Below are positions 17,481 through 51,590 of a stretch of DNA of 64,000 nucleotides, piece after piece. The position numbers and the translations under genes were made by a program. This DNA comes from Trueperaceae bacterium. GTDB lineage: Bacteria > Deinococcota > Deinococci > Deinococcales > Trueperaceae. Below the pieces are notes generated by a model, which worked only from the letters and a program-made list of their open reading frames with translations, was not told where the DNA came from and did not search any database. Each line of letters starts with the position of its first letter. The stretch's first letter is position 1. The stretch covers positions 3,808,001-3,872,000 of the forward strand of contig CBDCDZ010000004.1 of assembly GCA_965215565.1 (NCBI GenBank), in the 5' to 3' direction.

Positions 17481-18464
17481 TTACTTGTCATCTTTTTCTT
17501 TTCGAGATACTGATCCGCGTAGCTTTGCTACCTCTTCGTAATTTTCGAACACGTCGGACCCGCCAAAGTACCTTCTTATCCCGCGTGACAGTAGATGAAA
17601 AGTCATCGGGTCCACTCCAAGTTCTTCAAGTGGAAACCCGCTCTCCAACACCTCCATAGCTCTCACTAAGTGTAAATTTGCTCGCTTTACTTCTAATGGG
17701 CTACCAGTTTGTGCGGCTTTGTAAACACTTACGCCGAGTTCATATAAGAAAGGAAGCTCTTCTCTAAAAGCGCTGACAGCTACTAATAGGCTAACGGGGT
17801 CGCCTGGTTTTTCTCCAAGCATCGAAGTCAAATCAGCGTAAATTCTATTTTGAAACCTCTTCTTTTTTCTAGTAGTTTGGGGCGTTTCATCAGCAATTTC
17901 TCTAAAGCGTGAATCTAAGGAGCGTACGCTAGCTACAAGTTCTTCTAATACTTCAGCTTGCGATCTAATATGCTTTGCCGTTCTCGATGAATCGGGTATA
18001 GCTCGAATGGTTTTTTCAAAATCAGGCCATAAAGCTTCGAAAAGTTGTCCTGCGCGTCCTTCAGGTACAGAATGCTCTCCAACTTTATTTATTGAGCTAA
18101 CTATCTCGCTTAAACCTTTCTTCTCTACCTTCTTCGCTTGAAACTGGGCAAGAGGTCCCGTAATATCTCTAAAATCTAGATCGAGGAGCAAAGGTATAAC
18201 CTTGCTTCCCTCCATTGATTTGGCTAATGCGCCTGCTTCGAATAGTACCCAAGAAGAGTTGACGTTTTCGCGAGTTGTGCAAACGATGCCGAAATTAGAT
18301 AGTTCTAACTCCTTTGCAACTTCTTCAGCCCAGCGATCACCTGCACTAATATCGGCTTCAGATAACCAAGGCTCTACGTAGTGTAATACGAGAGGTAACC
18401 AATCATGCAACGCTTTAGCAAGTTCCTGGCTGCGTTCTCCGCTCCAACTAATAAAAACCTTCAT
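17481..18464 (-). CDS. TIR-domain protein (TIR_2) with uncharacterised C-terminal domain
   Basis: MKVFISWSG...DISAGDRW...WVLFEAGAL with the catalytic Glu retained; visibly AT-rich relative to flanks. Confidence 0.88.
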   Translation of the reverse strand: MKVFISWSGERSQELAKALHDWLPLVLHYVEPWLSEADISAGDRWAEEVAKELELSNFGIVCTTRENVNSSWVLFEAGALAKSMEGSKVIPLLLDLDFRDITGPLAQFQAKKVEKKGLSEIVSSINKVGEHSVPEGRAGQLFEALWPDFEKTIRAIPDSSRTAKHIRSQAEVLEELVASVRSLDSRFREIADETPQTTRKKKRFQNRIYADLTSMLGEKPGDPVSLLVAVSAFREELPFLYELGVSVYKAAQTGSPLEVKRANLHLVRAMEVLESGFPLEELGVDPMTFHLLSRGIRRYFGGSDVFENYEEVAKLRGSVSRKEKDDK

Positions 18465-21632: not shown

Positions 21633-21669
21633 GAGAGGTCCGCAACGTTCGTAAAGTTGCGGACCTCTC
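21633..21669. terminator. Hairpin between convergent genes
   Basis: GAGAGGTCCGCAAC-N9-GTTGCGGACCTCTC. Confidence 0.7.
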
Positions 21670-21687: not shown

Positions 21688-22005
21688 CTAGTCGCTGAAG
21701 CGAAAAGGGTCAACTGGAATACAAGCGTCTTCCAAGCACACCCAGATGTAGTAGTGGTCCACCTCTGCGCCGCTCACATCGGTAATGCTTTCATGCGTTC
21801 CCTCCTGCAAGTCGAACGCTAGCTCGCCGATCAAAGCAGCAGGAAGAATTGAGGTGGCGTCTTCGGTGACCTCACCTTTTATCATGATGTAAACGTCATC
21901 TTCTGGACGGTATTCCATCGTCTCTACTGCGACATCTTCTTCGCAGCCGAGAAGCGCGAATAGAACGAGGATAAAGGCTAAACTTCTGTAGGTTGTAATT
22001 TTCAT
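21688..22005 (-). CDS. Small lipoprotein ending ...CLEDACIPVDPFRFSD
   Basis: GGGAGG RBS; MKITTYRSLAFILVLFALLG-C lipobox; directly downstream of the HD-GYP gene. Confidence 0.8.
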   Translation of the reverse strand: MKITTYRSLAFILVLFALLGCEEDVAVETMEYRPEDDVYIMIKGEVTEDATSILPAALIGELAFDLQEGTHESITDVSGAEVDHYYIWVCLEDACIPVDPFRFSD

Positions 22006-22060
22006 CTGTTCCTCCCTTGAACGAGACGAGATGTTGAGCACCTTTGAGCACGGTTGTGTA

Positions 22061-22990
22061 TTAGGGTTTCATCGCGCTCACCACCTCGAGAAACGCTTGG
22101 AGAATCTCGCTCGGGTAATGCCGACCTGCGAAGCGCGTGAGTTCAGCGATAGCTTCGTCGTGGTTCAGTGCGCGGCGGTAAGGGCGGTTGCTTGTCATCG
22201 CGTCGTAAGCGTCAGCGATTGCTACGATATAAGCTTCGGTAAGTATTTCTTCTCCAGATAAACCGTAGGGATAACCGCTCCCGTCGAGCCTCTCGTGATG
22301 CTGCTCGATGATGGGTCCAGCCTCTTTCATAAAGGTTCGTTCAACCATCTCTCGACCGAAGGTAGGGTGCTTTTTGATAATATCCCATTCCAAAGGTGTG
22401 AGGGCGGAAGGCTTATTGAGTATCTCTACAGGTACATCTACTTTTCCTACATCGTGTAGATAAGCACCATAATCGAGATAGTGGAGGCGATGATGAGGTA
22501 GTCCTAGTACTTTGCCTGCTTCGTAAGAGAGTACCTTCAAGCGACCACAATGGTTCGCTGTGTAACCGTCTTTCTGCTCGACCTCAACGGCGAGTTGCCT
22601 CAGCTCATGTAGTTCGCTGCTGATATGGTGAAAGAAAGGGTACGACGTGAGATATAAAAACTCGACGCTTGTCTCCGTAGTGAAAATGACGGGTTGCTCT
22701 AAATCTTCAGCGATGAGGTAGTCGCCAGAGTTTATTCTTAGTGGTCCTGTAGGCAAGTCACACCGCAACATACCTTTCAGAATGAAGTAAATTTCAGTTA
22801 CCTTGTTATCCTCAGCGGGCGTAAGTGTAATTCGCTTGCCGACTTTCATGGTTGTTCTTACTAGTTCGGCTGTAAGGCGGGTAGATAGAAGGTGAATTTC
22901 GCCCGTATTGGAGCGAGTGACCTCGAGGCTCTCCCCCTGCCGCTTCACACTCAAGCCTTTGGGTAGCGCAGGGATTTTTTCATCGGGCAT
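22061..22990 (-). CDS. Cupin-like + HD-GYP domain protein (probable c-di-GMP phosphodiesterase)
   Basis: EIYFILKG cupin-like strand; YTANH, LHDVGK, HHERLDGSGYPYGL, ADAYDAMTSNRPYR; TATAGT 6 nt before MPDEK. Confidence 0.9.
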   Translation of the reverse strand: MPDEKIPALPKGLSVKRQGESLEVTRSNTGEIHLLSTRLTAELVRTTMKVGKRITLTPAEDNKVTEIYFILKGMLRCDLPTGPLRINSGDYLIAEDLEQPVIFTTETSVEFLYLTSYPFFHHISSELHELRQLAVEVEQKDGYTANHCGRLKVLSYEAGKVLGLPHHRLHYLDYGAYLHDVGKVDVPVEILNKPSALTPLEWDIIKKHPTFGREMVERTFMKEAGPIIEQHHERLDGSGYPYGLSGEEILTEAYIVAIADAYDAMTSNRPYRRALNHDEAIAELTRFAGRHYPSEILQAFLEVVSAMKP

Positions 22991-23230
22991 AGAGAAACTA
23001 TACACACCTTTTGGGAATGTGATAGAAAAATGTGAAGTTGTACGTGTAGTTAGCGCGGTTGACCTCAACATCTCTTATCCCCTGAATAAATCTGTGTGGA
23101 TTTCGCGCAGAGAGTGATGATAAGAACGTGTTGCGCAGTCCTATGTTAAGGAATTCACCCTTTTAGAGATATGGAAAATTTAACACCTGTTTTCCCTGGA
23201 CTTCGGCGCGTTTTGCAAGTTAAGGTCATA

Positions 23231-23256
23231 ACTGAAGTGACATTTTGCACTTCAGT
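23231..23256. promoter_or_regulatory. Perfect 9-bp inverted repeat upstream of the small peptide gene
   Basis: ACTGAAGTG-N8-CACTTCAGT. Confidence 0.5.
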
Positions 23257-23277
23257 AAGTTTGGAGAGGAGATAGAG

Positions 23278-23403
23278 GTGAAAACATTGCGAGTTTTAGT
23301 GGTTCTATTAACGCTTAGCGGTTTTGGCATGGTGCTGGCGGCGGAGTCGAACCCGCAGAGCGACGATACACCTGTGACGAATCCTTTTCGTTTTGACAAC
23401 TGA
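23278..23403 (+). CDS. 41-aa secreted peptide precursor MKTLRVLVVLLTLSGFGMVLAAESNPQSDDTPVTNPFRFDN (not in ORF track)
   Basis: GGAGAGGAG RBS, GTG start, Sec-type signal peptide (VLA|A), downstream terminator. Confidence 0.78.
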   Translation: MKTLRVLVVLLTLSGFGMVLAAESNPQSDDTPVTNPFRFDN

Positions 23404-23420
23404 AAGCTGGCTTCAATAAC

Positions 23421-23453
23421 GAAAGAGCGCACCTCAGCGGGTGCGCCCTTTTT
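23421..23453. terminator. Probably bidirectional terminator
   Basis: AAAGAGCGCACC-tcagcg-GGTGCGCCCTTTTT. Confidence 0.7.
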
Positions 23454-23478: not shown

Positions 23479-25728
23479 TTAGAACGTCAATACCTCTTCA
23501 TGCGAGCGTAAGCCGTCGGAGAAGGTTAGGTTTAAGGTGTTGCTCCGCGTTTCTAAAACAACCTCACCACTCTCGTCCATTGCTAAGACATTGCCTTGAG
23601 CGTCGCGAACGATCACGGCGTTGTAGGCGCTAACGTCCCAGGTGAGGGTTACTTTGCCGTTTGCGCGCTTCACTTCGGTCTTCTGCGCGGACTGCGTGCG
23701 GAGCGTCATGCCTTGCTCGGCGAGGACGTTGCCGCTACGCTCGACGCGCAGGCTTACGAGGTCACGCGCCTCACCTTCGCTGAGGGGCACGGCGAGGTTG
23801 AAACCGGAGAAGCTGTCAGTAAGGATGTCCGCTACGCTCTGGGTGCTGAAGGGCACATTGAAGAGGGTGCGTCCGGCGCTGTCCGTACCGATGAGGGTGT
23901 AAGGACCGGGTGTCGGGGTGTCGGCGGCAGCCTTTGCTCTAAAGACGGGGTTGAGCGTCACCGCGCCGCGCTCGACGCTGCCGCTCACGATGAGAGCGTT
24001 TTGAGGCAGGCTCTGGCTCCCTAAAGCTTGACTTTGAATGTTGTAGGCGTGGTTCTGGCGGTGCTCTAAGATGCCGTCGTAGGTGTAGTCGCTGATCCAG
24101 GCGGGGTTGCAGTAACCCATGATGTCGGCGTGGCCGCTCGGCGCTTTGAGGGTCTGCGTGCTCTTATCGAAGCCCCACACGCCGATCTGGCCCTCATCGT
24201 GCGGGTAGTGCTTGTCGCCGCTAACTTTGCAGGGCGCGTGGCTGCGGTTCCAGTTGTGACCTAGCTCGTGCGCCATGACCTTGCTGCGGCTTCCCGCTCT
24301 GTTCCAACCCACCGAGACGGGCTTGCCACCTACCCAGCCTACCCCCGCAATGCCGCTGCTGTAGCCGGGGGCCACCACGCCGTAGTAGAGGTCCGTGCTG
24401 CCGTCCATTGCGCGCAAATTCGTGAGTTGCGATAAGAGCGTGTTCCAGCCCCTATCGTTTCTCGCCTCTAGCGTGCCGCTAAAGGTGTAAGGCTCGTGGA
24501 CCGTGACGTTGATCTTGCTGAGCGGGTACATCAAGCGGGTCTGCTGCAAGAGGTCGTCTTGCGCTGCCTGGTCGAGCGTGGGCGCGCTGCCCCCGTAGCT
24601 TACAGGCACGAGCGTGAGGTTGAGCGTGGGCGCTTGCGTGACGCTGAGGGCGACGAAGCCCGAGGCGGGGTAGCGGTTGTTCGCTTCGTCGCGCTCAGCG
24701 ACTTCGTTGTCCGGGTCGATCTCCACCGCAACCCTGAGACCGGGGGTGATGAGCGCTTCGTCCAACATGGCGTTAAAGGTGCTGCCGAGGTCACCCTCGT
24801 CCGTTTGAGTGGGGACGCTCGCGGGACTGGAGAGGTCGAGGTGCCCTTCGACTTGACCGTTTTTGTAGTGAAGGCGCACGGTGACCTCTTGACTGTTGAG
24901 CTGATTCGCGCGGACAAAGGCGCGAACCAAACCTTCGCGCTCAGCGACGAGGGCGCGGCGCTCGTGGGGAGGGCGGTGCGAGTCCGCCGCTGGCACCGCC
25001 TGGTTGATGTAAAAGCGCTCGAACTTGAGGTCTAGGGTGGCGGCGTTTTCCACATCGCAGTCGCGAACAACCGTGAGGGTTGTGTCCGCGCCGCTACCGC
25101 TGATGCTCAGCTCGGCGCGCTCACGCTTGGGCTCGGTGCAGGGGCTGACGCTCAGCTCGAGCGTGTCGCTCTCGCCCGCGCCTAACGTTCCCGAGGCGCG
25201 CGCCGGGATGAGCCAGTCTTGACTGCTCGAGAGGGTGTAGTCGCTGCTCATCTGTCCGCTATTGCTGAGCGTGACGCTGCGCGTGACCGCTCGGCTGCTC
25301 ACGCTCTCCTGTCCGCTGACGGTTAGGGTGTGGGCGCTCAGCCACCACACGGGTCCTTCGTTCACGCCGCAGGCGAGGGTCATCGGAATGACTACGGTGG
25401 GGGTGGTTGCGCCGTCCGAGGTGACGGTGAGATCGCTTTGGAGCGTGCCCGCGTCGCACTGCGCGCTGACCTCTAAGGTGCGCGCTTGGTTGGCGTCTAA
25501 ACGCCCTTTGTGTGGGGTGACGCTGACGCGCGCGTCGCTGCTCTTAACTTCGAAGGTGAGGGGCGCGCCGCCCTCGTTGGCGAGGCGCAAGGTGGTGCCG
25601 GCGCTCGAGCTTGCCACAACTGGCTCAGCGAGCTTCGCTTCGATCACCTGGTTGTCCGCGCCGCCGCACGCGGCGAGCAGCGAGACGCAGAAAAATCCCA
25701 AAATGTGTAGAACGGTACGTGCGTGCAT
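23479..25728 (-). CDS. Lipoprotein zinc metallopeptidase (M66-like) with BACON/Ig-like domains
   Basis: LLAAC lipobox, beta-rich repeats, AHELGHNWNRSHAPC zinc motif, DIMGYC Met-turn. Confidence 0.82.
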   Translation of the reverse strand: MHARTVLHILGFFCVSLLAACGGADNQVIEAKLAEPVVASSSAGTTLRLANEGGAPLTFEVKSSDARVSVTPHKGRLDANQARTLEVSAQCDAGTLQSDLTVTSDGATTPTVVIPMTLACGVNEGPVWWLSAHTLTVSGQESVSSRAVTRSVTLSNSGQMSSDYTLSSSQDWLIPARASGTLGAGESDTLELSVSPCTEPKRERAELSISGSGADTTLTVVRDCDVENAATLDLKFERFYINQAVPAADSHRPPHERRALVAEREGLVRAFVRANQLNSQEVTVRLHYKNGQVEGHLDLSSPASVPTQTDEGDLGSTFNAMLDEALITPGLRVAVEIDPDNEVAERDEANNRYPASGFVALSVTQAPTLNLTLVPVSYGGSAPTLDQAAQDDLLQQTRLMYPLSKINVTVHEPYTFSGTLEARNDRGWNTLLSQLTNLRAMDGSTDLYYGVVAPGYSSGIAGVGWVGGKPVSVGWNRAGSRSKVMAHELGHNWNRSHAPCKVSGDKHYPHDEGQIGVWGFDKSTQTLKAPSGHADIMGYCNPAWISDYTYDGILEHRQNHAYNIQSQALGSQSLPQNALIVSGSVERGAVTLNPVFRAKAAADTPTPGPYTLIGTDSAGRTLFNVPFSTQSVADILTDSFSGFNLAVPLSEGEARDLVSLRVERSGNVLAEQGMTLRTQSAQKTEVKRANGKVTLTWDVSAYNAVIVRDAQGNVLAMDESGEVVLETRSNTLNLTFSDGLRSHEEVLTF

Positions 25729-25761: not shown

Positions 25762-25873
25762 TAGCAGGTCTCATCTGGTCTGAACCAGTCTCAGCAGATG
25801 AAGTGCTGTCTAACGCGCACTTGATGGTGATGATATCTGCGTGATTCAAGCTCAGTTACAGAGAACCGCTGTA
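25762..25873. mobile_element. Degenerate MITE family A copy within the peptidase 5' leader
   Basis: TAGCAGGTCTCATCTGG...GGTGATGATATCTGCG...GAGAACCGCTGTA. Confidence 0.6.
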
Positions 25874-25878
25874 ACCCG

Positions 25879-25950
25879 TCCCGTCGGTTGCACCACTGGC
25901 TCCACTCATCCCAGGTGCCCAGATACGGAATGAGTTTCATCGCTACGGAA
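25879..25950 (-). ncRNA. c-di-GMP-II riboswitch aptamer
   Basis: Minus strand UUCCGU AGCGAUGAA ACUCAUUCC GUAU CUGG GCACC U GGGAUGAGU GGAG CCAG U GGUGC AACCG ACGGGA shows all stems, the GCACC/GGUGC pseudoknot, and UGAA/GGAG and GCAACC hallmarks. Confidence 0.85.
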
Positions 25951-26229
25951 ACTTTCTATAGGTATTAAAGCAGATGCGCCCCGAGGGGGTTGTGAAGTCC
26001 TTACGCCGTCAGGAACGAGTTAAAATTGTCATGTTGGGAACTAGACCAAGGTATCGTATGGATTCTGGTTGAAGCCACGACAAAAGGCATTCGCATTTTT
26101 CCGTCGTTTGCAAAAAGAGCGAGATTTCGTAACGGCGTCTCGTGCGGTGACTGTTAGAAGGTCATGCAACCGCTGCAGAACTTTGAACGCGCTCTACAAC
26201 CACTATACTTTAAGAGGTTCAGGTGAATG

Positions 26230-51400: not shown

Positions 51401-51590
51401 GAGCAATGAGCAACGAGCAATGAGTTGAAAGTGGAAAGATAAAACTCAGGTAGTGGTTCTGAGTCGAATACCGCCCTATACTATCTCTACGTGGTGAACA
51501 AGGGGTTTCAACCCCTTGCTTTGACATCAGCATCATTTTAGATAAAGCCACTACCAAAACTCATTGCTCATTGCTTTCAACTCATTGCTC
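51401..51590. repeat. GAGCAAT heptamer tandem arms in inverted orientation (host site of MITE B)
   Basis: GAGCAAT GAGCAAC GAGCAAT GAG ... CTCATTG CTCATTG CT; similar element without insert at 56741-56803. Confidence 0.7.
51449..51555. mobile_element. MITE family B (GGTAGTGG/CCACTACC TIR, 8-bp TSD AAAACTCA)
   Basis: AAAACTCA at 51441-51448 and 51556-51563 flanks perfect 8-bp TIRs. Confidence 0.8.

Follow-up and report, generated by a model that had tools for sequence, protein, structure and literature searches.

The stretch of DNA analysed here, referred to as the window, comprises 64,000 nucleotides from a Trueperaceae bacterium of the phylum Deinococcota, and positions are given on that stretch. 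It contains a three-gene locus, one case of a module that is widespread across Deinococcota and Bacillota, in which the gene of a cupin/HD-GYP protein lies beside genes of predicted exported proteins that may be precursors of a short signal peptide. The three genes sit where the original prediction had placed them, and their coordinates and two C-terminal tails were reproduced. A predicted receptor-enzyme of 309 amino acids (22061..22990, minus strand) consists of a cupin domain, a linker helix and an HD-GYP domain, and its model has no transmembrane helix. On the same strand lies the putative long precursor, a 105-amino-acid lipoprotein (21688..22005) with an ATG start, a strong ribosome binding site and the lipobox LLGC. 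It is modelled as a helix and a β-hairpin followed by the invariant Asp99-Pro100 and a tail, PFRFSD, which is predicted at low confidence to be free. A 17-bp hairpin (21633..21669) is the likely terminator of the receptor-lipoprotein operon.

The putative short precursor is an open reading frame (ORF) of 41 amino acids on the plus strand (23278..23403). It starts with GTG and has, as had been claimed, its own ribosome binding site, GGAGAGGAG (23263..23271, plus strand), 6 nt 5′ of the start codon. A Sec signal is predicted at residues ∼1–22, with a basic N-region, a hydrophobic core and an Ala cleavage-like site; here and throughout, signal peptides were called by a hydrophobicity/charge rule of our own and not by a dedicated predictor. 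An acidic spacer follows, and the C-terminus is NPFRFDN. The codons of the predicted signal hexapeptide PFRFDN, residues 36–41, lie at 23383..23400 (plus strand), and the same hexapeptide ends two long-form homologues of the lipoprotein (P0007 and P0034).

The lipoprotein ends in DPFRFSD. Both C-termini do carry Asn or Asp, then PFRF, two residues and a stop, and the chance of two C-termini sharing the 4-mer at that offset is 6.3e-5 (this genome, 1,975 long frames). The upstream Pro-Val, also remarked on earlier, is present in both tails but one residue out of register. Only 16/33 bases are identical between the two tail sequences, and a recent DNA duplication of the tail is therefore ruled out.

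The cupin/HD-GYP protein and its partner genes

The AlphaFold2 model of the 309-amino-acid protein (88 sequences) has a predicted local distance difference test (pLDDT) score of 94.8. Residues ∼12–117 form a cupin, or double-stranded beta-helix, domain (22640..22957, minus strand) with Z up to 11.6 (KdgF, root-mean-square deviation (rmsd) 2.7, 99 aligned). Pfam detects HD/HD_5 alone in the window protein at E ≤ 1 and no cupin family; the cupin-HD-GYP assignment made earlier holds through the structure model and the Cupin_2 matches present in homologues. The linker helix and HD-GYP domain (residues 118–309; 22064..22639, minus strand) have a complete set of conserved metal and substrate residues, and the HD-GYP part matches PA4781 (Z 23.8, rmsd 2.3, 192 aligned) and PmGH (Z 23.3). 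H147, H179, D180, K183, H208, H231, H232, E233, G239-Y240-P241, D260, D263, R269 and Y271 are invariant in 89/89 aligned homologues. R272 of the RxY[K/R] motif is kept in 81/89, as is E138, whose match to the third-metal Glu E185 of PmGH is drawn from position and not from an explicit alignment. The HD and HHExxxGxGYP motifs, the other metal ligands and RxY[K/R] are described as the signature of an active cyclic diguanosine monophosphate (c-di-GMP) hydrolase (10.1101/2021.11.05.467447). The full motif set fits such a hydrolase, and activity is predicted from it.

The cupin is of a different character. Among the same 89 sequences, positions 57 and 59 of the HxH...E...H motif have no His among their common residues and the Glu alone is retained; Glu66 is invariant and Glu42 near-invariant. 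As the metal histidines are missing, a sensor is more likely than an enzyme, and a role as a metalloenzyme that modifies the peptide, as in ribosomally synthesized and post-translationally modified peptides, was ruled out.

The receptor family comprises 250 clusters at 50% identity. Five paralogues are found in this genome and the receptor is present in 33/127 other genomes of Trueperaceae; the same query matched no receptor in 236 genomes from other families of Deinococcota. Scans for the module gave one metagenome locus and two large replicons among plasmids. The scanned viral contigs and phages gave none, and nothing thus points to a phage role of the arbitrium kind. None of the counts includes the weak matches in 26 Clostridia genomes (E no better than 1e-8), which were taken for other cupin proteins; in most of them a stop follows the cupin. 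Fusion forms were also observed, with the arrangements TPR-GGDEF-cupin-HD-GYP, cupin-HD-GYP-GAF-GGDEF and double-cupin HD-GYP (L012:88-2421, L016, P0101, P0106, P0156 and P0167); at L012 a long precursor is retained behind a riboswitch.

A total of 122 cupin/HD-GYP genes were found and one duplicate was dropped. A scan of the flanks of the remaining 121 located a predicted secreted partner at most 1.2 kb away at 101 (77 long, 31 short); related genomes are included, and these pairing counts are thus not independent. The rate is 44/60 in Deinococcota and 57/61 in Bacillota. Among controls, the filter called a partner at 14/300 random frames and at 0/6 of the genome's other HD-GYP genes; it also overlooked at least three long forms. 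Five of the 20 small secreted-type ORFs in this genome lie within 2.5 kb of the five receptor paralogues. Co-occurrence is seen between genomes as well: 27/29 Deinococcota genomes with the lipoprotein type of precursor, type (a), have a receptor match, and among 251 sampled genomes of one Bacillus order, the 27 with the helical type (b) carry the receptor without exception; receptor matches numbered 40 in this sample, three of them weak. Tails are matched within loci. In a scan with 35 tail 4-mers, a small ORF carrying any of them was found at 3/72 long-form loci and each time the 4-mer was the locus's own, although two of the three loci share PFRF by descent. These comparative results, partners beside homologues and tails matched within the locus, favour the peptide-signalling module that had been proposed, as do, beyond the checks suggested for it, the c-di-GMP riboswitches on partner genes.

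Partners are of three types. The long partner overall is a folded protein of 92–243 amino acids that ends in Asp-Pro and a short variable tail, and the short one a prepeptide of 25–70 amino acids. Type (a), that of the window lipoprotein, has 94 homologues and also occurs in Bacillota; Asp-Pro is present in 94/94, His71 and Tyr86 each in 93/94, the exact Pro+5 ending in 85 and a lipobox-like motif in 58. A fold search with the lipoprotein model (pLDDT 74.6; helix, β-hairpin and low-confidence tail) gave no clear match, with a best Z of 3.4. Type (b) is helical, 110–241 amino acids long and found in Bacillota (Bacillus, Clostridium, Planococcus, Halanaerobiales and others). It occurs at 12 of the 14 loci given by the named-genome scan, which covers cultured carriers such as Bacillus sp. 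cl95, Planococcus salinus and Clostridium grantii, and its Asp-Pro is invariant (12/12). Type (c) consists of prepeptides of 28–65 amino acids, several with tandem hexapeptide units in two, three or seven copies. No Pfam or NCBIfam family scored above cut-off for either long or short precursors, and the ESM Atlas gave only leads below 0.9. The lipoprotein had been regarded as either a tethered mimic of the peptide or a second precursor. As the lipoprotein type is the conserved partner, with a long form at 77/121 loci, it is most likely a precursor, and the mimic is disfavoured.

Hexapeptide length for the putative active unit is suggested by the repeat units and the position of Asp-Pro. Many short forms have a conserved Pro ten residues before the end, and the unit could possibly be a decapeptide instead. 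Variants of the short form include a paralogue with two tandem prepeptide genes (L002, L042 and L043), whose near-identical tails vary together between species, and a divergent Bacillota branch (L195, L196, L197, L199 and L261) with prepeptides of 28–48 amino acids, in which proline-rich tails replace the beta-type hexapeptide.

Rfam models were run on 80 loci (380,072 bases), most of them picked because a partner is present, and matched 21 c-di-GMP riboswitches. Nineteen lie on the same strand as a precursor gene and 18–478 nt 5′ of it, nine of class II (Deinococcota) and ten of class I (Bacillota). One of the remaining two is 5′ of a receptor-precursor operon and the other 5′ of a congener's peptidase gene. 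Two loci have precursor and receptor genes that run convergently, so that the riboswitch there serves the precursor alone. This genome has two further class II matches below the gathering threshold, 63 and 48 nt 5′ of paralogue peptides. The riboswitches link these tiny genes to c-di-GMP independently of gene order; action of a peptide on the enzyme is not implied by them. Two other RNA arrangements were noted: three c-di-GMP-II riboswitches within 1.4 kb, two of them in tandem (G000:C4:2483145-2484498), and a RAGATH-18 RNA between a c-di-GMP-I riboswitch and a long precursor gene (L088:1729-2246).

The short gene varies between close relatives. A repeat of ∼115 nt takes the place of its 5′ part in both congeners, where the final four codons, stop and terminator survive. 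The repeat is dispersed, has an internal hairpin and resembles a miniature inverted-repeat transposable element. It lies at L007:2160-2310 and at dozens of sites in this genome (e.g. window ∼51500-51556), and one copy borders directly on the paralogue L004 peptide. Another genus has an intact homologue with two hexapeptide units, downstream of the lipoprotein gene. The 41-amino-acid gene is thus genuine but can be dispensed with, and would be a second source of the putative lipoprotein-derived peptide.

Covariation, mechanism and alternatives

Tail similarity was compared with receptor similarity in 89 receptor-tail pairs. In Deinococcota it follows the cupin (partial r 0.38 for the cupin vs 0.00 for the HD domain), and in Bacillota the HD domain (0.13 vs 0.41). 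A charge scan of 71 non-redundant pairs (285 column-position tests) placed positions 170 and 126 among the top three columns of the HD part in either phylum on its own; cupin Glu31 gave less signal. Arg or Lys occupies position 170 in 8/8 receptors whose partner has Glu at tail position 3, compared with 2/81 others. The eight Glu cases come from both phyla and from long as well as short precursors, and five changes on the tree are required for them. Under a clade-matched null, with sister pairs picked by the analyst, any column equalled the result with up to eight outsiders in 9/20,000 draws. The residue in the window protein is His170 (22481..22483, minus strand). A pairing of cupin Glu31 with tail position 3 was the first idea; it ranked fifth among the cupin columns, failed the independent-pairs test and was dropped. 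The original prediction had the peptide read by the cupin, which is probably too narrow: the positions that best track the tail are 170, in an HD-GYP helix, and 126, in the linker helix, and the cupin contributes a weak signal at position 31. With position 170 in the HD-GYP domain, the binding site likely spans the cupin/HD-GYP junction.

It is fairly probable, on present sequence evidence, that an exported, processed and re-imported peptide tunes the cupin/HD-GYP phosphodiesterase, with feedback from c-di-GMP. The gene pairing, the precursor types, the Asp-Pro of the long forms, the HD-GYP motifs, the cupin devoid of histidines and the riboswitches are direct observations, from which we infer all later steps. 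The precursor would be exported by Sec or as a lipoprotein, and a single short peptide would derive from the C-termini of both exported proteins of the locus (PFRFSD and PFRFDN in this case). The Asx-Pro bond, or a site close to it, would be cut by the precursor itself or by a protease, and the freed peptide would be imported by a family-5 peptide ATP-binding cassette transporter; six peptide-type solute-binding proteins (SBP_bac_5) encoded in this genome are candidate importers that make this step plausible. In the cytoplasm the peptide would bind as a β-strand-like hexapeptide at the junction formed by the cupin edge, the linker helix and HD helix 166–177, and binding would change the rate of c-di-GMP hydrolysis. 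Activation of the phosphodiesterase, that is, negative feedback, is weakly favoured as the direction of the effect. The loop would be closed by c-di-GMP, which would set precursor expression through the riboswitches; 33 GGDEF domains are encoded in this genome. Its five paralogues may form separate channels with different peptides.

A more elaborate version is offered tentatively, as one that could well be wrong in its particulars. It envisages a cross-phylum peptide language unrelated to the RRNPP systems, in which folded, caged precursors cut themselves at the invariant Asp-Pro, or short prepeptides are trimmed, to yield a hexapeptide that binds at the cupin/HD-GYP junction and acts as a switch of c-di-GMP hydrolysis. 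The riboswitches would complete a loop from quorum to second messenger, and a one-residue code, tail position 3 against receptor position 170, would set specificity.

Several observations weigh against a peptide that acts on the cupin/HD-GYP enzyme. The partner filter was tuned on Deinococcota loci, ∼7/31 short calls look spurious by eye (one alters the total) and 20/121 genes have no partner by the filter. Precursor types (a) and (b) align over 26 C-terminal columns only (probability 24.7, E 8e-4), and many short tails lack the Asx-Pro junction, so that no single cleavage rule applies. The short gene is destroyed in both congeners, and a second copy sought elsewhere in these two genomes was not found. 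In the window no riboswitch precedes the peptide gene or the operon at E ≤ 0.1, the sole match being 5′ of a metallopeptidase gene. The two phyla give a mixed answer as to which domain the tail follows. Position 170 was picked post hoc from the 285 column tests, and of five independent pairs on the best tree just two lie on well-supported branches, too few for a sign test to reach 0.05. In 22 further pairs, some of them near-duplicates, tails are non-acidic and position 170 is non-basic, which is consistent but adds no new Glu-tail case. The outer envelope of Deinococcota is, in addition, a barrier that the peptide would have to cross.

Other explanations have been considered for the same data. 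The peptide might be freed in the envelope of the cell that makes it, through a protease or the acid or heat lability of Asp-Pro, and re-imported as a report on the state of the envelope or medium rather than on cell density. The acid lability of the Asp-Pro bond is established chemistry and the bond is invariant here; the commonest partner is a folded protein of 92–243 amino acids, the lipobox-like motif in 58/94 would imply tethering and riboswitch control would suit an internal loop. Such self-sensing is nonetheless judged unlikely, as tails diverge between paralogues and between species, which suggests private channels, and short, untethered, multi-copy precursors resemble the diffusible pheromone propeptides described in PMC11343458. 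A comparably low probability is assigned to partners that are secreted structural or matrix proteins regulated by c-di-GMP, with β-prone tails for assembly or sorting, and that share a regulon with the phosphodiesterase and never touch it. The riboswitches do mark the partners as c-di-GMP targets, the tails alternate in a hydrophobic, β-strand pattern and are repeated in some cases, and the Mantel-type result is mixed. Yet pairing is one-to-one for each receptor paralogue, each with its own tail, the other HD-GYP genes have no such neighbours, mature products of 19 amino acids are too small and the charge of the tail matches a cytoplasmic residue.

That match with residue 170 also bears on a target outside the cytoplasm, where the tail would bind the long protein or a membrane receptor, the short peptide would compete and the cupin would sense an unrelated small molecule. 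The conservation of the long form beyond its tail (His71 and Tyr86) and the nearest cupin folds, which are small-molecule enzymes and sensors, would agree with this. Many loci, however, have the short peptide and no long form, and no conserved membrane gene was seen among the loci inspected; this explanation is considered very improbable. Least credible is a chance reading frame with a coincidental tail. The ORF is missing from both congeners, as a chance frame might be, but they do retain its end, four codons and the stop, next to a dispersed repeat that has displaced the 5′ part. The two-unit homologue intact in another genus, the pairing controls and this remnant already largely refute coincidence, the tail match itself having a chance of 6e-5.

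Flanking elements and other prepeptide loci

Two elements beside the short gene had been listed in its support. The terminator-like hairpin followed by a T run (23422..23451, plus strand) is present, and retained in the congeners, but shuffled sequences yield more such sites than were found (4.2 expected vs 1), and the hairpin alone is no evidence. The 9-bp inverted repeat with an 8-nt spacer (23231..23256; arms 23231-23239 and 23248-23256) is likewise real. It is not kept in the two congeners, shuffled sequences fold about as well as its region does (z −0.65), no riboswitch match falls there, and a role as a conserved operator or riboswitch is unsupported.

The neighbouring gene (23479..25728, minus strand) encodes a secreted zinc-metallopeptidase-like lipoprotein with BACON/Ig domains. 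A c-di-GMP-II riboswitch lies 145 nt 5′ of it (25873..25956, minus strand; 65 bits, gathering threshold 53.5), which is also found in congener L078. The peptidase is possibly an output of the module, or an enzyme that processes or degrades the peptide. It was rejected as a core component because its synteny with the module is limited to the congeners. Elsewhere in the window, in a region otherwise of housekeeping genes, a 327-amino-acid ORF (17481-18464, minus strand) has an N-terminus that is TIR-like by eye.

Other prepeptide loci of this genome were noted in passing. At G000:C4:1214298-1216240, a 42-amino-acid prepeptide ending in GRSNVWAG faces a 429-amino-acid ORF, protease-like by eye, with four copies of the octapeptide; here too one motif is found in both a short and a long protein. 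At G000:C4:2805025-2808586, a 32-amino-acid prepeptide ending in GLRVRGG lies 3′ of a 466-amino-acid lipoprotein with a similar motif and a 640-amino-acid ORF with a P-loop-like motif. Two orphan prepeptides (G000:C4:1422816-1425951 and 1575584-1578198) are convergent with large regulator-like ORFs, BTAD/SARP-like by eye, and the second lies ∼3 kb from the single cupin/HD-GYP paralogue without a partner.

Comparison with known systems

c-di-GMP is a switch between motile and sessile life. To our knowledge, bacteria sense peptide pheromones inside the cell through TPR proteins whose targets are transcription or phosphorelays. If the proposed mechanism is correct, the cupin/HD-GYP receptor would represent a second, independent solution, with a peptide signal wired straight to c-di-GMP. 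Peptide communication would then be a trait of one Deinococcota family and of numerous relatives of Bacillus and Clostridium, an orphan phosphodiesterase family would gain a ligand and secreted proteins outside curated families a function, and the paralogues could serve as orthogonal c-di-GMP switches under peptide control. As the system is small and soluble and cultured non-pathogenic species carry it, a test with enzyme and synthetic peptide would be cheap.

Asp-Pro self-cleaving modules are known from the FrpC self-processing module and GDPH-type sites. The precursors here share with them an invariant Asp-Pro in a secreted protein (94/94 and 12/12); they differ in having a small helix-hairpin domain with a best fold Z of 3.4, and their cleavage is a prediction. 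We know of no peptide ligands for cupins. XRE-cupin regulators (PDB 1y9q and 6b8w) have the same double-stranded beta-helix (Z 9.7–10.0, tied with many cupins), whereas the cupin here is fused to an enzyme and has no cupin histidines. Enzymes that join a sensor to HD-GYP, such as PmGH (GAF-HD-GYP), RpfG (REC-HD-GYP) and PA4781, are alike in fold, in the full motif set and in an N-terminal sensor on a long helix. They are unlike in that the sensor here is a cupin and its putative ligand a gene-encoded peptide. The word cupin occurs 0 times in the main text of a survey of HD-GYP architectures, whose tables or supplement could list the fusion (10.1101/2021.11.05.467447). Literature searches, with most subscription papers outside their reach, found no description of such a system.

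The closest parallel is with the RRNPP(A) systems (Rap-Phr, PlcR-PapR, NprR-NprX and AimR-AimP). Criteria given for these include a Sec-secreted propeptide of 10–70 amino acids, maturation and re-import, and an adjacent intracellular TPR receptor of 250–500 amino acids (10.1101/2021.08.18.456871). The 41-amino-acid propeptide and the 309-amino-acid receptor fall within these size ranges and the 105-amino-acid long form outside them; adjacency is seen in the window and at 101/121 homologous genes. As in RRNPP(A), genes of a small propeptide, here predicted to be secreted, and an intracellular partner are adjacent, the active unit would be C-terminal and some precursors have tandem units, as is described for Phr propeptides (PMC11343458). 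The TPR is where the two part: the model is wholly cupin and HD-GYP, and only a few long fusion homologues carry TPR and GGDEF, so that the module would be RRNPP-like in its working and not an RRNPP member. Its output would be c-di-GMP hydrolysis instead of transcription or inhibition of a response regulator, its commonest precursor is a folded protein of 92–243 amino acids ending in Asp-Pro and a tail, its genes are often under c-di-GMP riboswitches and it occurs in Deinococcota as well as Bacillota. The receptor fold, the output and the long precursor are without counterpart in described peptide systems and the module is likely undescribed, while its logic resembles that of RRNPP.

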